59,519 nt of DNA from Bacteroidales bacterium (GTDB lineage Bacteria > Bacteroidota > Bacteroidia > Bacteroidales > JAADJA01), in the NCBI GenBank assembly GCA_047920975.1, contig JBLRXC010000004.1:1-59519 (forward strand). Direction: 5' to 3'. This document shows positions 36,213 through 49,621 of this stretch, one piece after another; position 1 is the stretch's first letter; each line of letters begins with the position of its first letter. The notes beneath the pieces were generated by a model. The model ran no database searches. It saw nothing but the letters and a program-made list of their open reading frames with translations, and was not told where the DNA came from. Made by a program: the position numbers and the translations under genes.

Positions 36213-36424
36213 GAGCTGAGGGCTGAGAGCGGAGGGCGGAGAGATTAGAGCGTCAGGTCAGTTGGCAGTGGGCAGTGGGCAGTTGGCAGTGGTTAAATGG
36301 TTAAATGGTTGAATGGTTGAATTGTTAAATTGCTAAATTGTTTCGGAACATGCTAAAGGCCAGGATCAAAAGGCCAAGGGCATGATGAAACTGAGAACTG
36401 AGAACTAAATATCGAACATCAAAC
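36213..36424 (+). repeat. Stack of several different 7-8 bp degenerate tandem arrays
   Basis: G(A/G)GC(T/G)GA about 6x, CAGT(T/G)GG 5x, TT(A/G)AAT(G/T)G about 6x, AGGCCA-like about 3x, GAGAACT 3x, ATC(G/A)AAC 2x. Confidence 0.9.
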
Positions 36425-36436
36425 TCATCATATACA

Positions 36437-37960
36437 ATGAGATATATAATAAAAGGAGAGGGCTTAACCATTGAAGACGTGGTGCGCGTTGCCCGGCATC
36501 ATCAACAGGTTGAACTGCACCCGGCAGCTCTTGAAAGAATCAGGAAATGCAGGGCCATGCTTGAAAAAAAGATTGAGAAAAAAGAGATCATGTACGGTGT
36601 GAATACCGGCATTGGTGAATTTTCGGAGGTGGTGCTGAACGATGATCAGGTAAAGGATTTCCAGAAGTATCTTATCTACAATCACGCTGCCGGCATCGGT
36701 GATCCTATGCCGGAAGAATGGGTGCGCGGAGCCATGCTTGGCCGGATCAACGTCCATGCCCATGGAAACTCCGGTGTACGGCCCGAAATCACTCAAACCC
36801 TTGTGGATATGCTTAACAAGGGAGTAACACCCTGGGTTTGTAAAAAGGGTTCAGTAGGTGCCTGCGGTGATCTGGCACCCATGTCCCAAATTGCGTTGCT
36901 GATGATGGGTGAAGGGAAGGCATACTTCAATGGAGAATTGCTGGCGGGTAAAGAAGCGCTTGACCGGGCTGGTATACCTGTTCCCGGATTAAAGGCACGA
37001 GACGGACTGGCCACAATTAACGGCTCAAATGTTTTAACCGCCATGAGCGCCATTTTCTTATATGATGCCAACCGCTGGCTTAAACAGGCTGAAATTGGAG
37101 CAGCCATGTCGCTTGAGGCATTGAAGGCAAACATGCGCCCTTATACTTCCAAATTGCATGAGGTAAGAGGATTCAGTGGAGCCGTAAGGAGTGCCCGGGC
37201 TATCAATAAACTTGTTGATGGAGGGGATTTGAAAGAGGGGCGTGTGAAATGCAAGGTTCAGGATGCCTATTCCATGCGCTCAACGCCACAGGTCATCGGG
37301 GCTGCCCACGATGCTTTGGCCTGGGCACGATCACAGGTTGAGATTGAACTAAATGGTGTGGGGGACAACCCTGTATTTTTTCCTGATGAAGACCTTCAGC
37401 TGTCAGGAGCTAATTTTCAGGGGTCTCCGGTGGCGCTGCCTATGGATATGGCTGGAACAGCCATTACGATGGTCAGTATTTTGTCGGAACGCAGGATGAA
37501 CCGGCTGAATAATCCGGCACTGAGTGTTGGTCTACCGGCTTTTCTCACCAAAGGCGCCGGCATGTTCTCAGGACTTATGCTCAGTCAATACACCGCCGAT
37601 ACACTCATTGTGGAACAACGCATTCTTTCGGCACCGGCTTCCATTCAATCCATTCCGGCAGCTGCCGACCAGGAAGATTTCGTTTCGATGGGGATGAATA
37701 CCGCCCTTAAAAATTTCGACATTCTTGACAATGCTTATGGGATTCTTGGCATTGAACTCATGGCAGCAGCTCAGGCACTTGATTTCAGGGAGTATTCATT
37801 CGGCAAAGGCGTCTCAAAAGCCAGAGAGGTAATCCGCAGATATGTCGAATTCCTTGATGTTGACCGTCCCCTCTATGATGATCATAACGCAATGAAGGCG
37901 CTGGTTGAATCATGTGAGATCCTTGAGGAGGTCGAAAAAATAACCGGAAGCCTGGAATAA
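36437..37960 (+). CDS. MIO-family aromatic amino acid ammonia-lyase/aminomutase homolog with an Ala-Cys-Gly motif; substrate unknown
   Basis: MYGVNTGIG, YLIYNHAAG, GSVGACGDLAPMSQ, QDAYSMRSTPQV, ANFQG, DQEDFVSMG. Confidence 0.9.
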   Translation: MRYIIKGEGLTIEDVVRVARHHQQVELHPAALERIRKCRAMLEKKIEKKEIMYGVNTGIGEFSEVVLNDDQVKDFQKYLIYNHAAGIGDPMPEEWVRGAMLGRINVHAHGNSGVRPEITQTLVDMLNKGVTPWVCKKGSVGACGDLAPMSQIALLMMGEGKAYFNGELLAGKEALDRAGIPVPGLKARDGLATINGSNVLTAMSAIFLYDANRWLKQAEIGAAMSLEALKANMRPYTSKLHEVRGFSGAVRSARAINKLVDGGDLKEGRVKCKVQDAYSMRSTPQVIGAAHDALAWARSQVEIELNGVGDNPVFFPDEDLQLSGANFQGSPVALPMDMAGTAITMVSILSERRMNRLNNPALSVGLPAFLTKGAGMFSGLMLSQYTADTLIVEQRILSAPASIQSIPAAADQEDFVSMGMNTALKNFDILDNAYGILGIELMAAAQALDFREYSFGKGVSKAREVIRRYVEFLDVDRPLYDDHNAMKALVESCEILEEVEKITGSLE

Positions 37961-44133: not shown

Positions 44134-45861
44134 ATGGAATTATTAAAAACCTTGTCTAAATATTGGAATGAGCTTTATCCCGGTCAGTCCGATCAAACGT
44201 TGCAAGCTTTTATTAAGGAGATTGACAAAGTCAGGGACCAGATAACAGATCCCCCTAACCAACCTGAATGGTACAAGGATGCCATTGTTTATTCGCTCTA
44301 TGTTGACCTGTTCAATCACGATTTCAATGGGTTGAAGGAAAAACTCGATTACCTGCAGGAGCTCGGCGTCAATTGCATTTGGCTGTTACCAATACTGGAT
44401 TCTCCCATGAAAGATGCCGGGTTTGATATCAGGAATTACGACCGCATCCGGACTGATCTGCTTGGGCTGCCGGAGAATGCTCCCCTTGACAAACAGCAGG
44501 AAGTATTTCGCGAATTTCTTGAAGAAGCACACAAACGCGGTCTGAAAGTGATCTTCGACATCGCCATCAACCACACTTCGGAAGAGCACCCCTGGTTTGT
44601 TGAGTCACGCAAAGGGGTTGACAATCCGTTCCGTGATTATTACATCTGGTCAAGGGATACGAGCCTTTACAAAGAGGCGCGCATCATCTTTGAGGGGCTT
44701 TGTGAAAGCAACTGGGAAAAGGATGGCGAATGGTACTATTTCCATCGCTTCTTTGAGTTCCAGCCCGACCTGAATTACAAAAACCCGGAAGTACTGCTCG
44801 CCATGACCCGGAATTTCCTTTTCTGGCTCATCCAGGGAGTGGATGGCTTCAGGGCGGATGCCATACCTTATCTGTGGAAAGAGGAGCGAACCAATTGCGA
44901 GAACCTTCCCAAAACCCATACTGTGGTGAAGTTTTTCAGGGCTGTCCTCGATTATGTCAGACCGCACACCCTGCTGCTTGCTGAGGCCTGCCAGAAACCG
45001 CATGATGTGGTGAAATATTTCGGTGACGGGGATGAGTGCAACGCCGGTTACCATTTTCCACTGATGCCGATGATCTTTAAAGCGCTTGCAGCCGGCAGCA
45101 GTGAACCGGTATCGAATATTCTAAGTCCTGCCGTTACTCCGGCCATCCCTGAATCGGCCCAATGGTTCACCTTTCTCAGGTGTCACGATGAACTGAGCCT
45201 GGAGTTGGTTTACGTTTCAGAAGAAGACCGGAAATATATCCATGATAACTATTGCCATGAGCCGCTTTGGAACTTCCGGCTGGGACAGGGTGTTGCAGCC
45301 AGGCTTTCAGAATTGCTCCAGCGCGACCCGGAAAGGATCGGGCTGGCCTATTCCATTATGCTAACACTGCCTGGGACGCCAATTATTTACTATGGAGATG
45401 AATTCGGTAAACTCAATGATGAAAATTATTACCATGAAATGATCAAGCTGACCGGTAAAGATGACACCAGGTTCCTGGTGAGGGGCAAACTGGATTGGAA
45501 TGCATTGGAGAACCAGTTGAAAAACCCGGATTCCTTTTCAGCAAAGGTATTTAACCAGGTGAAAAAGTTGGTGAAAACAAGAAGTCGTTATAAATGTTTC
45601 GGAAGAGGTAGTATTGACTGGGTAGATGTGAAAGACAGAACAGGAAACAAAAAGATGGAAATCCTTGCATTCGTGCGTCAATTTGAGGGGGAAAAAGTAC
45701 TGGTGCTGAACAATCTGAGCGACAAAGAGCAATGGATCCGGATGGCTGATCTGGGAGAAAATGGTTTTAAGGAAATTTTGGGCCAGGAGATCGTTACCGG
45801 AAAAGAAAGCGGGCATTTGCAACTGAAGGGGTATGGGTATTTGTGGATGAGGTTGGAATGA
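44134..45861 (+). CDS. GH13 trehalose synthase (TreS)-like alpha-glucosyltransferase
   Basis: WYKDAIVY, FHRFFEFQPDLNY, catalytic DGFRADAIPYL / LLAEACQ / FLRCHDELSLE, LPGTPIIYYGDE; no signal peptide. Confidence 0.82.
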   Translation: MELLKTLSKYWNELYPGQSDQTLQAFIKEIDKVRDQITDPPNQPEWYKDAIVYSLYVDLFNHDFNGLKEKLDYLQELGVNCIWLLPILDSPMKDAGFDIRNYDRIRTDLLGLPENAPLDKQQEVFREFLEEAHKRGLKVIFDIAINHTSEEHPWFVESRKGVDNPFRDYYIWSRDTSLYKEARIIFEGLCESNWEKDGEWYYFHRFFEFQPDLNYKNPEVLLAMTRNFLFWLIQGVDGFRADAIPYLWKEERTNCENLPKTHTVVKFFRAVLDYVRPHTLLLAEACQKPHDVVKYFGDGDECNAGYHFPLMPMIFKALAAGSSEPVSNILSPAVTPAIPESAQWFTFLRCHDELSLELVYVSEEDRKYIHDNYCHEPLWNFRLGQGVAARLSELLQRDPERIGLAYSIMLTLPGTPIIYYGDEFGKLNDENYYHEMIKLTGKDDTRFLVRGKLDWNALENQLKNPDSFSAKVFNQVKKLVKTRSRYKCFGRGSIDWVDVKDRTGNKKMEILAFVRQFEGEKVLVLNNLSDKEQWIRMADLGENGFKEILGQEIVTGKESGHLQLKGYGYLWMRLE

Positions 45862-45867
45862 GAGGAC

Positions 45868-45956
45868 GGAATTCAGAATTCAGAGTCCAGAATTCAGAAG
45901 AAAGAATTATAGAAGACTGAAATAGATTATAGAATGGAGAATACAGAATATAGCAT
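45868..45956 (+). repeat. Left heptamer array (consensus AGAAT(T/A)C, about 12 degenerate units)
   Basis: GGAATTC AGAATTC AGAGTCC AGAATTC AGAAGAA ... AGATTAT AGAATGG AGAATAC AGAATAT. Confidence 0.9.
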
Positions 45957-45965
45957 CAACAAGAT

Positions 45966-46343
45966 ATGAACAGACCGCCGGCAAAGTGTTTTATGGATCT
46001 GACGGTGTGGCAGAAGGCGCATGAGCTTGTTTTACTTGTGTATCAGTTTAGTGATCATTTTCCAAAAAAGGAGATTTTTGGTTTGACTTCGCAGTTGAGA
46101 CGTTCTACTGTTTCAGTCGCCGCAAACATTGCCGAGGGGTTTAAAAAAAGAGGGAAGCCAGATAAAATGAGGTTTATGAATATTGCCCAGGGCTCATTGG
46201 AGGAAACCCGGTATTACCTGATCCTCGCAAATGACCTTAAATACGGCGATACTAAGATACTCATGAATCACCTGGAGGAAGTCAGCAAGCTACTTGAAGC
46301 ATACAGAAATGCAATCAATCCATACAAACCGCCTGAATTCTGA
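45966..46343 (+). CDS. Four helix bundle protein (23S rRNA IVP / TIGR02436, Avd-like fold)
   Basis: FMDLTVWQKAHELVLLVY, FPKKEIFGLTSQLRRSTVSVAANIAEG, FMNIAQGSLEETRYYLILANDLKY. Confidence 0.95.
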   Translation: MNRPPAKCFMDLTVWQKAHELVLLVYQFSDHFPKKEIFGLTSQLRRSTVSVAANIAEGFKKRGKPDKMRFMNIAQGSLEETRYYLILANDLKYGDTKILMNHLEEVSKLLEAYRNAINPYKPPEF

Positions 46344-46430
46344 GTCTGGATTCTGGATTTGGATTCCGACTTCTGGCTTCTGTATTCTGTATTCTGAATC
46401 CCGGGTTCTGAGTTCAGAGTTCAGAGTTCC
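46334..46430 (+). repeat. Right heptamer array (consensus TG(G/T/A)ATTC, about 14 units), inverted relative to the left array
   Basis: TGAATTC TGAGTC TGGATTC TGGATT TGGATTC CGACTTC TGGCTTC TGTATTC TGTATTC TGAATCC CGGGTTC TGAGTTC AGAGTTC AGAGTTC. Confidence 0.9.
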
Positions 46431-46471
46431 CAAAAAAAACAAACGCATTACTACAGATAAATATAAACAAC

Positions 46472-49400
46472 ATGTCACAAAACAATTTCGAAGCAGTAAT
46501 CTTTGACCTTGATGGTGTTATCACTAAAACGGCTTTGGTTCACAGTGCAGCCTGGAAAAAGATGTTTGATGAATATCTTATTGATCGAGAAAAGAAGTAT
46601 AAGGAGCCGTTCAGGGAGTTTCTGCATGAAACGGACTACCTGCCTTATGTTGACGGAAAGCCCAGGTATAAAGGCGTGGAATCTTTCCTGCAATCCCGGG
46701 GAATCAATATTCCTTTTGGCACTCCTGAAGATGAACCGGGCAAAGAGACTGTCTGCGGGTTGGGAAACCGGAAAAATCAGGCATTCAATCAAGTTCTCGA
46801 AAAGGAAGGAGTTGAGGTATATGAATCAACAGTTGAATTGATCAGAAACCTGAAAAGCAGAGGAATCAGGGTAGGTGTGGCGTCATCCAGCAAAAACTGC
46901 AGGGCGGTACTTGAAAGAGCCGGCTTATTGCATCTGTTTGAGACGCGCGTGGATGGAGAGGTGTCAGCAGAACTTGGCCTCAAGGGAAAACCTGAACCGG
47001 ATATTTTCACGGTAGCTGCGGATAATCTGAAGGCTTCTTATGACAGGGCTGTTGTTGTTGAGGATGCCGTGTCGGGCGTACAAGCCGGGAGGGCCGGGAA
47101 TTTTGGCCTGGTGCTTGGGATTGCCCGCGAAGAGAATGAAAAAGAACTAATGGTCAACGGAGCAGATATCGTTGTGAAAGATATTGAAGAGATCGGCCTG
47201 GAAGGCATCGAAAACTGGTTTAAGGGTGGATTGGAAAAAGACAACTGGAGTATCACTTACAATGATTACATTCCTGAAAAAGAGAAGACTAGGGAAACAC
47301 TGCTTGCGATTGGTAACGGATATTTTGGTACGCGCGGGGCTTTAGAAGAGACAGATGCAGGTGAGAACAACTACCCTGGAACCTATATCGCCGGACTGTA
47401 TAACCGGCTTGTGAGCAAAGTTGAGGACTGGGATATCGAAAACGAAGACTTCGTGAACTGTCCAAACTGGCTTTCCATCCGGTTCAGTATTGGACCAGAA
47501 GAGCCGGTGAATTTCAGCAGAGTCAGGATCAATCATATTGAAAGAAAACTGGATATTAAAACAGGGTTGCTCACCAGAAACATCCTCATTGAAGATACCC
47601 ATGGACGCCAGACACATATCCGATCCGAACGGTTTGCGGGTATGGATAATCCGCATCTTGCAGCCATGCGCTATGAGATAACACCTGTCAATTATTCAGA
47701 AAAGATCACCGTGATTTCAGGACTGAACGGCGACATCATCAATGACGGGGTAGCACGCTACAGGCAACTCAACCAGCAGCATCTCAGACCCTCACTGACA
47801 GGGCACAATGGAAACCTCTCGTGGCTCTCGGTTGAGACTACACACTCAGCCATTGAGATAGCGGAGGAAGCTAGGCTCGAGGTTTTGTATGACAATGAAA
47901 AGATCAATCCTGAATTCACCTTTGATGAAAAACCGGGCGCCATCTATACCGAATTTGAAGTTCCGGTTGAAATGGGCAAAACACTCACGGTCGAAAAAGT
48001 GATTGCCCTCTTTACTTCTATGCACTGGGATACCGCGGATCCGCTGAATGAAGCAAAAGAGATGATCCGGGAGGCACCCGGGTTCCAGAGCTTGCTTGTT
48101 AAGAGCAAACTCAAATGGTCAGAGATCTGGCAAAAGATTGATGTCCGGATTGAAGGAGACCGGCTCACTCAGAAATTACTCAGGTTACATTTATATCACC
48201 TTGTGATCTCATTTTCTCCGCACAATGTGAATATTGATGCAAGCATCACAGCAAGAGGGCTGCATGGTGAGGCATATCGGGGTCATATCTTTTGGGATGA
48301 GCTCTTCATATTACCGTTCTACAACATCCATTTTCCGGAGGTAGTGAAAGCTGCACTTTTGTACAGGTACAAAAGACTTCCGGAGGCCAGAAAATATGCA
48401 CAGCAACACGGTTACAATGGGGCTATGTTCCCCTGGCAAAGCGGCAGCAACGGCAGGGAGGAAACGCAGGTGGTTCACCTCAATCCACTGACAGGGAAAT
48501 GGGGTAATGACTACAGTTCGCTGCAAAGGCATGTATCGCTGGCGATTGCTTACAACATCTGGCAATATTTTCATACCTCCGAAGACATAAGGTTTATGGA
48601 AAATTACGGCGCTGAAATGTTTTTTGAAATCTGCCGCTTCTGGGCAAGTAAATCGAAATTCAATGAGGTAACAGGCAGGTATGAGATCAAAAATGTGATG
48701 GGTCCCGATGAATTCCACGAAAGTTATCCCGGCGCTGAGGATGGAGGTTTGAAAGACAACACCTATACGAACCTGATGGTCGCTTGGCTGTTCCGCCGGG
48801 CATCCGACCTGATGGAAAAGACATCCGCTGTCAGGAACACCCTCATGACAAAGATCGGTTTGACCACAGATGAGGTCAGCCATTGGAAAGAGATCGCGGG
48901 CAAGGTAAACATAGTGATCCAGGATGACATCCTTGCACAGTATGACGGCTATTTTGAACTGAAGGAACTCGACTGGGATCATTACCGGGAGAAATATGGC
49001 AATATTTACAGGATGGACCGCCTGCTGAATGCGGAAGGCAAATCGGCCGACGAATACAAAGTGGCCAAGCAGGCCGACACGCTGCAAACATTCTATAATC
49101 TGGATGAAAAAGAGGTCACAGAGATGCTTAAAGAACTTGGCTATGATCTTCCTGAAAATTACCTTGCCAAAAATCTGGAATATTACCTCCAAAGGACATC
49201 CCATGGCTCTACCCTGAGCCGCGTGGTGCATGCACAGTTGGCCAACATGATCAGTAACAAAAAGCTCAGTTGGGAACTTTACCTGGATGCCCTGACCAGC
49301 GACTATGCTGACATCCAGGGAGGAACAACAGGCGAAGGCATCCATGCGGGGGTGATGGCTGGCACCGTGCTGATCGCCCTGCAATCGTTTGCCGGCCTCG

Positions 49401-49621
49401 ACCTGAAAACTGACTTTGTCAGGTTCAAACCACACATGCCTGACCATTGGCGTTCAATCAGTTTCAAATTTGAATTCAAAAAAGTCAGCTACCATTGTAT
49501 TGTAACCCATCGTTACGTGAGGATCGTGCAAACCAATCCATCCGGAAAAGAGGTGTTTGCAGAGATCAATGGGCGGTTTGAAACATTGAAAAACGGAATT
49601 GCCGGCGAATTCAATTATTAA
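46472..49621 (+). CDS. Fusion of a beta-phosphoglucomutase-like HAD domain and a GH65 phosphorylase (trehalose-6-phosphate phosphorylase-like)
   Basis: HAD: FDLDGVIT, ASSSKN, GKPEPDIF, VEDAVSG. GH65: GNGYFGTRG, ARGLHGEAYRGHIFWDE, GPDEFHE, KQADT, TSHGSTLS. Confidence 0.9.
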   Translation: MSQNNFEAVIFDLDGVITKTALVHSAAWKKMFDEYLIDREKKYKEPFREFLHETDYLPYVDGKPRYKGVESFLQSRGINIPFGTPEDEPGKETVCGLGNRKNQAFNQVLEKEGVEVYESTVELIRNLKSRGIRVGVASSSKNCRAVLERAGLLHLFETRVDGEVSAELGLKGKPEPDIFTVAADNLKASYDRAVVVEDAVSGVQAGRAGNFGLVLGIAREENEKELMVNGADIVVKDIEEIGLEGIENWFKGGLEKDNWSITYNDYIPEKEKTRETLLAIGNGYFGTRGALEETDAGENNYPGTYIAGLYNRLVSKVEDWDIENEDFVNCPNWLSIRFSIGPEEPVNFSRVRINHIERKLDIKTGLLTRNILIEDTHGRQTHIRSERFAGMDNPHLAAMRYEITPVNYSEKITVISGLNGDIINDGVARYRQLNQQHLRPSLTGHNGNLSWLSVETTHSAIEIAEEARLEVLYDNEKINPEFTFDEKPGAIYTEFEVPVEMGKTLTVEKVIALFTSMHWDTADPLNEAKEMIREAPGFQSLLVKSKLKWSEIWQKIDVRIEGDRLTQKLLRLHLYHLVISFSPHNVNIDASITARGLHGEAYRGHIFWDELFILPFYNIHFPEVVKAALLYRYKRLPEARKYAQQHGYNGAMFPWQSGSNGREETQVVHLNPLTGKWGNDYSSLQRHVSLAIAYNIWQYFHTSEDIRFMENYGAEMFFEICRFWASKSKFNEVTGRYEIKNVMGPDEFHESYPGAEDGGLKDNTYTNLMVAWLFRRASDLMEKTSAVRNTLMTKIGLTTDEVSHWKEIAGKVNIVIQDDILAQYDGYFELKELDWDHYREKYGNIYRMDRLLNAEGKSADEYKVAKQADTLQTFYNLDEKEVTEMLKELGYDLPENYLAKNLEYYLQRTSHGSTLSRVVHAQLANMISNKKLSWELYLDALTSDYADIQGGTTGEGIHAGVMAGTVLIALQSFAGLDLKTDFVRFKPHMPDHWRSISFKFEFKKVSYHCIVTHRYVRIVQTNPSGKEVFAEINGRFETLKNGIAGEFNY

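Follow-up and report, generated by a model that had tools for sequence, protein, structure and literature searches.

A small gene enclosed by inverted arrays of heptameric repeats lies within a stretch of 59,519 nucleotides (nt) from a Bacteroidales bacterium (GenBank assembly GCA_047920975.1, contig JBLRXC010000004.1, positions 1 to 59,519 of the forward strand), which was analysed at its full length and is referred to here as the window. The window represents contig C4 of a 3.63-Mb, 307-contig and 89%-complete genome that carries SusC/SusD genes. The gene consists of an open reading frame (ORF) for 125 amino acids, from ATG to TGA at 45966-46343 on the plus strand, and is located between the stop codon of a GH13 gene (45861) and the start codon of a HAD-GH65 gene (46472), in a SusC/SusD-type sugar-utilisation operon in which the gene and its flanking repeats, together termed the cassette, lie exactly within the stop-to-start gap. 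The locus is composed of the following features, given with the evidence for each.

44134-45861, plus strand: upstream host gene, a TreS-like member of the GH13 alpha-amylase family (Pfam Alpha-amylase, 4e-61), forming the left border of the insertion

45862-45965, plus strand: upstream arm of about 12 purine-rich AGAATNC-type heptamers, with the array at 45869-45950 (Tandem Repeats Finder (TRF), pattern matches and co-fold)

45966-46343, plus strand: gene for a four-helix-bundle protein of PF05635/TIGR02436, the 23S rRNA intervening sequence (IVS) protein family (profile scores)

46333-46400, plus strand: downstream arm of about 10 pyrimidine-rich reverse-complement heptamers (TRF, five minus-strand pattern matches and co-fold)

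46374-46432, plus strand: local hairpin of the inner downstream arm with 3.6 units in the upstream orientation at 46405-46429 (minimum free energy (MFE) structures; TRF, GTTCAGA x3.6)

46433-46471, plus strand: A-rich spacer up to the next start codon (sequence reading)

46472-49621, plus strand: downstream host gene, HAD of the beta-phosphoglucomutase family fused to a GH65 glycoside phosphorylase/hydrolase (Pfam), forming the right border

The 125-amino-acid protein scores well above the cut-offs of both family models, with 122.8 bits for PF05635 (cut-off 33.8) and 116.9 bits for TIGR02436 (cut-off 24), and among solved structures it is nearest by sequence to 2GSC (XCC0516 of Xanthomonas, E 4.2e-18), followed by 2RLD (E 2e-4), each of which was deposited with five chains per entry. 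Its profile matches are limited to four-helix-bundle families. PF05635 was found more than 30 years ago within rRNA intervening sequences and has since become a very large family, for which we know of no established function. Avd, a nucleic-acid-binding component of diversity-generating retroelements (DGRs), is matched at a distance by the bAvd Pfam model (E 5e-05, 24.2 bits, cut-off 40) and by the Avd equivalog NF033474 (E 1e-06, 29.1 bits, cut-off 80), and a four-helix-bundle relationship between Avd and PF05635-type proteins has been noted in PMC10053308. A DGR was considered and rejected for this locus, given that the Avd scores are far under their cut-offs and that reverse-transcriptase hits occur on contigs C20, C7 and C281 and none on this contig; no template/variable repeat pair is present among the repeats found in the window.

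The upstream arm starts with the first base directly after the amylase stop codon and its array ends 15 nt 5' of the ATG, and the downstream array begins within the ORF itself, covering its three final codons together with the stop. TRF delimits period-7 arrays at 45869-45950 (11.7 copies, 68% matches), 46333-46396 (9.4 copies, 76% matches) and 46405-46429 (3.6 copies, 94% matches). The 13-mer AGAATACAGAATA (45938-45950) is the exact reverse complement of TATTCTGTATTCT (46383-46395), and a repeat search paired the two flanks in inverted orientation 16 times, with 54-nt arms of 72% complementarity in the longest case and one perfect pair of 11 nt. A scan of the 59.5 kb on both strands for AGAATNC x3 with up to three mismatches gave 13 matches, eight on the plus strand at 45861-45958, five on the minus strand at 46361-46409 and none elsewhere, compared to a chance expectation of 0.17; a total of 13 was reached in 0 of 100 shuffles. 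In a computed co-fold the two arms reach -72.8 kcal/mol with 37 intermolecular pairs, joining 45862-45904 to 46333-46373, as opposed to -44.7 +/- 3.9 kcal/mol for 200 mononucleotide shuffles, none of which was as good (z -7.1), and the same outer stem recurs when the entire 596 nt are folded to the MFE structure. The local hairpin at 46374-46432 is followed by an A-run and not by a U-run, a terminator scan of 45500-46800 gave no terminator-like site, and a promoter scan gave two promoter-like sites, both within the ORF and none in the arms, against 2.1 expected.

Most of what the original prediction had said of the locus is borne out by these results, including a 125-amino-acid IVP/TIGR02436 gene between TreS-like and HAD-GH65 genes (both family models score above cut-off and the neighbours agree), about 12 upstream copies of the AGAAT(T/A)C type, the exactly complementary 13-mers and the ability of the arms to pair around the ORF. 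Its array of reverse-complement copies does start in the last codons, as claimed, more exactly in the final three plus the stop, but contains only about 10 units instead of about 14, the last 3.6 units at 46405-46429 being in the upstream orientation and forming a local hairpin with their neighbours. The arrangement is also found in sequencing reads, as one DNA run yields two contigs that are identical to the window and span both junctions between arm and host gene, with no alternative joint, this run being possibly the source sample and thus not independent of the assembly.

Comparison with relatives indicates that the cassette is an addition to this operon. The GH13 gene, whose top NCBIfam match is the TreS N-terminal model at 460.8 bits, under the model cut-off of 678, has orthologues of 68-73% identity in 21 of 24 same-genus genomes; its neighbour displays the N-terminal, middle and C-terminal GH65 domains of Pfam together with HAD, and scores 164.1 bits with TIGR02009, above the cut-off. 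After five genomes were dropped in which the junction is cut or broken (G007, G012, G013, G015 and G016), 16 junctions were usable, and in 13 of these the distance from the GH13 stop to the GH65 start is just 2-228 nt. No PF05635 gene was detected by tblastn at any of the 16 orthologous junctions, 13 of which are too short to contain one. Gene and arms together therefore represent an insertion. Its borders could not be aligned with those relatives, which share only about 70% protein identity. The three remaining junctions hold other inserts, namely an IS200-family gene with palindromes resembling repetitive extragenic palindromes (REP) (L013 in G023; NF033573, 65.5 bits), a GxxExxY gene with flanking repeats of its own (L020 in G011; TIGR04256, 137.9 bits) and a 1.3-kb ORF (L016), and at L014 and L023 the palindromes occur without a gene. 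The GH13/GH65 junction is a hot spot for small repeat-flanked genes.

The same organisation recurs around paralogues. Eight PF05635 loci are present in this genome, and four of them are complete with inverted heptamer arrays whose unit differs from one to the next: AGAATNC in the window (C4), GCTGGTT on C24, a TTGCTGA type on C3 and a GGGGAGA type on C201. The locus on C244 has an upstream CAGTAGG array and is cut by the contig end, and that on C35 has a plain inverted repeat. The paralogues are strongly diverged, their arms differ, and there are no near-identical copies among the eight. To place these arms against a genomic background, the 130 nt upstream of each gene were compared with the reverse complement of the 130 nt downstream for the 2709 full-flank genes among 2977 crude ORF-genes, which gave a median score of 16 and a 99.5th percentile of 28. 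The seven testable PF05635 genes rank 2, 3 (the window gene), 4, 19, 44, 846 and 1566, five of them scoring 24-42; the chance of at least three of seven falling in the top four is 4e-8, and the rank-sum p is 2.4e-4. The other top scorers, including rank 1, were identified by eye as two IS200/RAYT-like genes with palindromes (RAYT, REP-associated tyrosine transposase), an insertion sequence (IS) transposase and a GIY-YIG gene, all of them repeat-flanked elements, so the test does recover known repeat-bounded elements. Three of these tops lie at C93:5148-5627, C52:15381-15971 and C166:1303-1602, and comprise the two IS200/RAYT-like genes with palindromic repeats and the GIY-YIG gene with repeated hairpins.

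This genome is rich in heptamer arrays, TRF listing 236 period-7 rows, mostly one-orientation mosaics in spacers (as on C24); arrays alone are consequently not specific to PF05635 genes, in contrast to the inverted pairing around them. Among 130 arrays with at least 2.9 copies, a same-unit inverted partner within 2.5 kb exists at only five places, corresponding to two PF05635 genes, two gene-less spacers (C9 and C183) and one 257-amino-acid ORF. In the spacer at C9:48138-48392, between two genes, AGAATNC units and about 12 reverse-complement units face each other across a loop of 134 nt and so form a hairpin without a gene. That its loop might be a PF05635 gene remnant was examined with 71 queries and rejected, the best tblastn E of 0.043 over 32 residues not being significant; the weak likeness is to the C-terminal part of PF05635 proteins, in the position and orientation expected for a remnant. 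A long gene row at C24:21400-32000 and C201:1250-3070 has one spacer after another occupied by one-orientation heptamer mosaics with unit types in similar order (AGAGCAG, GTTGCTC, GAACCGT, CAGTAGG and others), and two of these units also make up the arms of the C24 and C244 paralogues. On C3 (about 36318-36900, locus L005), the ATCAGCA-type downstream arm lies about 100 nt past the cassette stop, within the 5' coding part of the next ORF. The translated array forms a His/Ser/Thr-rich segment that follows a predicted membrane helix in a metal-efflux-like protein, so that here a heptamer array is read as protein. Within the window itself, more heptamer arrays (GAGGGCG, CAGTGGG and AACTGAG) occur at 36213-36406, 5' of a SusC-like gene, and a 21-nt tandem repeat is present at the end of the contig (59373-59487).

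A survey of the genus gave a similar picture. With 8-16 PF05635 hits in each of five same-genus genomes, 30 loci were returned, of which 21 have a flank score of at least 28, each with its own unit; the median score was 34, versus 16 for mismatched pairs of upstream and downstream flanks, and no locus (0/30) showed the direct orientation. High mismatched scores arose only between same-site cassettes of different species, which implies that many cassettes are vertically inherited, and their units drift from one to another, as in GGTTTAA, GGTTCAA and GGTTTCA. Cassettes that are syntenic within the genus in such numbers are not highly mobile over short time scales. Among same-site orthologues, the ratio of nonsynonymous to synonymous substitution rates (dN/dS) is 0.06-0.33 in the six close pairs with computable dS, six more pairs being saturated, and the cassette proteins in the genus are under purifying selection. 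One site, located by eye between the end of a crotonase-like gene and the start of a biotin-carboxylase-like gene (L130 in G014, L138 in G022, and also C244 here), carries cassettes whose proteins are just 23% identical and whose arms are unlike, GC-rich of the GGCAGT type versus AT-rich of the TTAACAA type, which suggests cassette replacement at a fixed site. Proteins of the window type (C4-type) are present in 3 of 29 genus genomes, the other two having theirs at a different site with AGAAGAC-type arms.

Beyond the genus, proteins 62-74% identical to that of the window were collected from 80 metagenome contigs and 80 named genomes, the latter spanning about 20 phylum-level labels assigned from record titles, among them Cyanobacteria, Nitrospirota, Acidobacteriota, Verrucomicrobiota, Planctomycetota, Bacillota, Chloroflexota, Deinococcota and Chlamydiota. 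At the 78 usable named loci, AGRANNC was counted over the 100 nt that precede the start codon, and its reverse complement from 30 nt before to 70 nt after the stop codon. At least three units were present upstream at 53 loci and at or after the stop at 54, on both sides at 42 and on either side at 65; mean counts were 3.29 upstream and 3.50 downstream, whereas units in the wrong orientation averaged 0.24 and 0.40, and far flanks gave 0.34-0.38. At many C4-type loci the array accounts for the final six or seven codons as well as the stop, and array copy number differs between the near-identical loci L111 and L116. Arms from different phylum labels cross-pair (score at least 28) in 44.5% of 5412 comparisons, whereas arms of the C4-type and C24-type subfamilies pair in 0 of 4524; a mismatched-pair control inside the C4-type set is confounded by the common unit family (control median 26) and was replaced by the cross-subfamily and genus controls. 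The C24-type subfamily, represented by 29 loci of 46-64% identity in other Bacteroidota families, has GGTTGC-type units with more drift. Conservation of the unit sequence beyond complementarity suggests sequence-specific recognition. C4-type upstream units often take the Shine-Dalgarno-like form AGGAG 5-10 nt before the ATG, with CTCCT downstream (for example L284:1460-1500 and 1845-1875), so that arm pairing would mask the ribosome-binding site; the AGAATNC units of the window cassette are without AGGAG.

Plasmids contribute to this distribution, as nine cyanobacterial plasmid records carry a C4-type gene (66-70% identity) and 10 of 14 plasmid hits were typed as conjugative; on the conjugative plasmid C of Trichormus variabilis ATCC 29413, a cassette with AGAATTC/AGGAGTC arms fills a gap in a type IV secretion system gene row. 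Nostoc punctiforme PCC 73102 is another cultured carrier of this subfamily. No match at E <=1e-10 was obtained in 50,697 phage records. The combination of about 70% identity across many phyla with an empty site here points to horizontal spread of gene and arms as one piece. That the two form a single unit had been proposed at the outset and is upheld by their absence at the orthologous junction in 16/16 same-genus relatives and their recurrence around homologues elsewhere. The comparisons that had been put forward along with it came out likewise, with 13 of 16 treS-GH65 junctions holding 2-228 nt only, inverted arms at five of seven testable PF05635 genes here and 21 of 30 in relatives, and a repeat unit that tracks the protein subfamily.

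Available data make it very probable that the window contains an inserted, horizontally spread cassette of the IVS type within an operon. The whole explanation that we favour, an IVS-type hairpin cassette that is read through, has its arms paired and is excised by RNase III, is more ambitious, and we give it an even chance of being right; for the RNase III mechanism at this particular locus, the expectation is even or slightly below. In such a scheme the operon transcript would read through the cassette, and the arms at 45862-45904 and 46333-46373 would pair into an imperfect stem of about 40 bp from which the ORF is looped out. RNase III, whose gene is present in the genome, could then cleave the arm stem as it does in the homologous Coxiella 23S rRNA IVS, which would free a stem-capped mRNA for the small protein and keep the flanking cistrons usable, and it is proposed that the insert is tolerated in operons and rRNA alike because cleavage leaves those cistrons usable. 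The arrays would lengthen, shorten and drift by slippage, with complementarity being retained. The most likely role of the protein is to bind nucleic acid, possibly the repeats around its own gene, in multimeric form as for Avd and the solved relatives. With regard to read-through, both neighbours share the orientation of the cassette in 51 of 72 cases, a proportion only mildly above what is usual for neighbouring bacterial genes and hence weak support.

Several observations weigh against this explanation. No clear arms were seen on reading the flanks of two of the seven paralogues (C54 and C122), nor were clear inverted arms found at 9 of the 30 loci of relatives; most of the 236 period-7 arrays lie far from any PF05635 gene, and inverted array pairs also enclose a 257-amino-acid ORF and gene-less spacers. 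Six of the 72 cassettes are antisense to both neighbours, so that operon read-through is not universal, and a search for sequencing runs with the locus returned zero RNA runs beside the one DNA run. When arm duplexes of 63 loci were computed in sense and antisense, the sense form was stabler in 27 and the antisense form in 36 (Wilcoxon p 0.33) with similar wobble counts, a blunt comparison given that RNAduplex allowed large loops; in view of this lack of a sense-strand G-U bias, an RNA stem is not favoured over a DNA-level structure by sequence alone. An RNase III stem would not require the unit itself to be conserved across phyla, and this conservation points to recognition of a specific sequence. 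Templated quasi-palindrome correction could maintain the complementarity of the arms without selection.

An explanation at the level of DNA, which we regard as unlikely on present data, is that a PF05635 protein binds or propagates its own heptamer in the manner of REP/RAYT systems, the cassette being the master copy, the scattered arrays its targets or progeny, and the inverted arms protein-binding sites instead of an RNA stem. It would accommodate a unit family conserved with the protein subfamily across phyla beyond complementarity, arm pairing without sense-strand bias, solved relatives crystallised at five chains per entry and the nucleic-acid binding of Avd. The distribution of orphan arrays can be read in its favour as well: AGAATNC/AGAAGAC-type arrays exist at five further loci in this genome (C8, C9, C16, C105 and C226), and among the 28 other genus genomes AGAAT-type arrays occur only in G002 and G003 (one locus each) and AGAAGAC arrays in G019, although the latter has no C4-type gene at E <=1e-20. 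Hits to the GGTTYMA array pattern number 38, 3, 47, 0, 14 and 0 in the six genomes with the matching subfamily (at least 68% identity), as opposed to at most 3 in the other 23 (one-sided rank-sum p 0.0066, the genomes being kin and not independent). One clade with both features spread may explain this association, and G009 and G022 carry the matching subfamily without such arrays. In G008, at least 19 of 21 GGTTYMA array loci are more than 1 kb from any PF05635 hit. Eighteen orphan loci of the GGTTYMA unit, when read, proved to be one-orientation spacer arrays, often right after a stop codon, with no inverted partner array within the 800 nt fetched at any of them. Some of these arrays are interrupted, L268, L275 and L277 (G008) each by the same kind of small, GC-rich hairpin (TCTCGCC and GGCGAGA, separated by four bases) and L270 and L271 by an inverted-repeat element of about 150 nt, as if they were insertion targets for small elements. 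AGAACNC arrays occur in 5 of 9 genomes with a 51-60% subfamily and in 0 of 20 others, an association that is post hoc and suggestive, the arms of three cassettes having been checked. On the other hand, arrays of any AGRANNC x4 type (10/29 genus genomes) show no clear link to the C4-type gene (3/29), the pattern being too loose in that it also catches AGAACYC and AGAAACC arrays of other cassette types; for many abundant units this 89%-complete assembly contains no cognate gene, and footprints of past cassette insertions would yield the same co-occurrence. The general form of the idea, that PF05635 proteins are dedicated partners of bacterial heptamer microsatellites and that each subfamily recognises and seeds or maintains its own 7-nt unit, is to our mind an outside prospect of the same order. 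If true, the orphan arrays of Bacteroidota, of cyanobacteria and of Xanthomonas would be dispersed progeny or binding sites, and an AGAATNC-armed cassette would have arrived here horizontally, its array then spreading to at least five other spacers.

A non-autonomous mobile element, with the arms serving as ends for a recombinase, transposase or reverse transcriptase acting in trans and the protein as cargo or accessory, possibly by way of single-stranded DNA hairpins or of homologous exchange between arrays, appears to us improbable. It draws on the empty site in 13 of 16 relatives and the other small repeat-flanked genes at L013 and L020, on about 70% protein identity over about 20 phylum-level labels with copies on conjugative plasmids, on the genus site where 23%-identical cassette proteins suggest fixed-site exchange, and on the three reverse-transcriptase hits and the RAYT-like genes of the genome. 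Against this, there is no transposase in or adjoining the cassette and no target-site duplication at its borders by eye, the diverged paralogues with differing arms and no near-identical copies imply that no recent burst took place, many cassettes are syntenic across the genus species, and a recombinase would have to recognise many different units. An element of the IS type or of the miniature inverted-repeat transposable element (MITE) type was rejected on account of the missing transposase, the lack of an evident target-site duplication and the divergence of the eight paralogues with different arms. Finally, the arms might have no function, as slippage-prone intergenic microsatellites whose inverted layout around a gene is incidental. 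Period-7 arrays abound in this genome, mostly far from PF05635 genes and in many spacers as one-orientation mosaics, and copy number varies between L111 and L116, as this view would have it. It fails to account for a flank-rank probability of 4e-8, inverted arms at 21 of 30 genus loci with 0 of 30 direct, strict polarity over 78 loci across phyla, and the confinement of all 13 window matches to the cassette where 0.17 were expected; this reading is strongly disfavoured, to the extent that we consider it scarcely credible. The IVS-type hairpin cassette, with its proposed processing by RNase III, remains the best explanation of the whole.

Among known systems, the closest is the helix 45 IVS in the 23S rRNA of Coxiella burnetii, the best-studied ORF-bearing IVS, described by Warrier et al. 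2016 (PMC4990558), who also cite Leptospira. According to that paper, RNase III cleaves this IVS in vitro, its ends as mapped fall within the stem, at the first repeat, and the authors think that the protein is not made (PMC4990558). The cassette resembles it in having an S23p/PF05635 ORF within terminal inverted repeats that form a long stem, tandem heptameric direct repeats just upstream of the start codon with a copy number that varies between strains, and a sporadic, horizontally acquired distribution. It differs in being located between two protein-coding genes, outside any 23S rRNA helix (9, 25 or 45), in the greater length of its arrays (about 12 and 10 units), and in that the cassette proteins of the genus are under purifying selection, unlike a protein thought not to be made. 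The element thus has the structural features of an rRNA IVS and lacks the defining location in 23S rRNA.

The short tandemly repeated heptamers known as STRR in cyanobacteria provide a second point of reference. In Rehm et al. 2015 (PMC4692102), heptamer arrays of GGGAATC and GGGGAYT units are reported from Xanthomonas and Nostoc, with 70-75 convergent inverted heptamer pairs in Xanthomonas as potential stem-loops. The arrays described here are likewise intergenic tandem 7-mers at many loci per genome, and differ from those of Xanthomonas and Nostoc as published in that inverted pairs enclose PF05635 genes and that the unit follows the protein subfamily; the text of PMC4692102 has 0 occurrences of '23S', 'intervening' or 'four helix' and leaves the protein family unmentioned. 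REP/RAYT systems share with the cassette a small gene flanked in inverted orientation by a short repeat that is dispersed in the intergenic DNA of the same genome, and RAYT-like genes rank beside PF05635 genes in the flank test; given a four-helix bundle in place of an HUH/Y1 enzyme and tandem heptamers in place of palindromes, this is an analogy only. In phages T7 and lambda, polycistronic mRNAs are processed at intercistronic RNase III hairpins, which similarly place a long stem between cistrons and separate messages without inactivating them, but in the phage hairpins no gene is enclosed and the stem does not consist of tandem heptamers.

No description of PF05635 genes with inverted heptamer arrays outside rRNA was found in the literature, supplements and subscription journals not being covered by the search. 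What is new here is the placement of the IVS design in operon mRNA and its generalisation to the whole PF05635 family. Two old open questions, that of the PF05635 family and that of bacterial heptamer arrays, are tied together by these data and can now be taken to the bench in tractable organisms, by asking whether RNase III excises the cassette from mRNA and whether the protein binds its own repeat. For annotation, intergenic operon junk of this kind becomes a discrete element with predictable borders. In conclusion, when set beside the rRNA intervening sequences from which the family was first known, the design of a small gene within a heptamer-built stem is not peculiar to rRNA but represents the normal package of PF05635, which sits in ordinary operons of many phyla and on conjugative plasmids.

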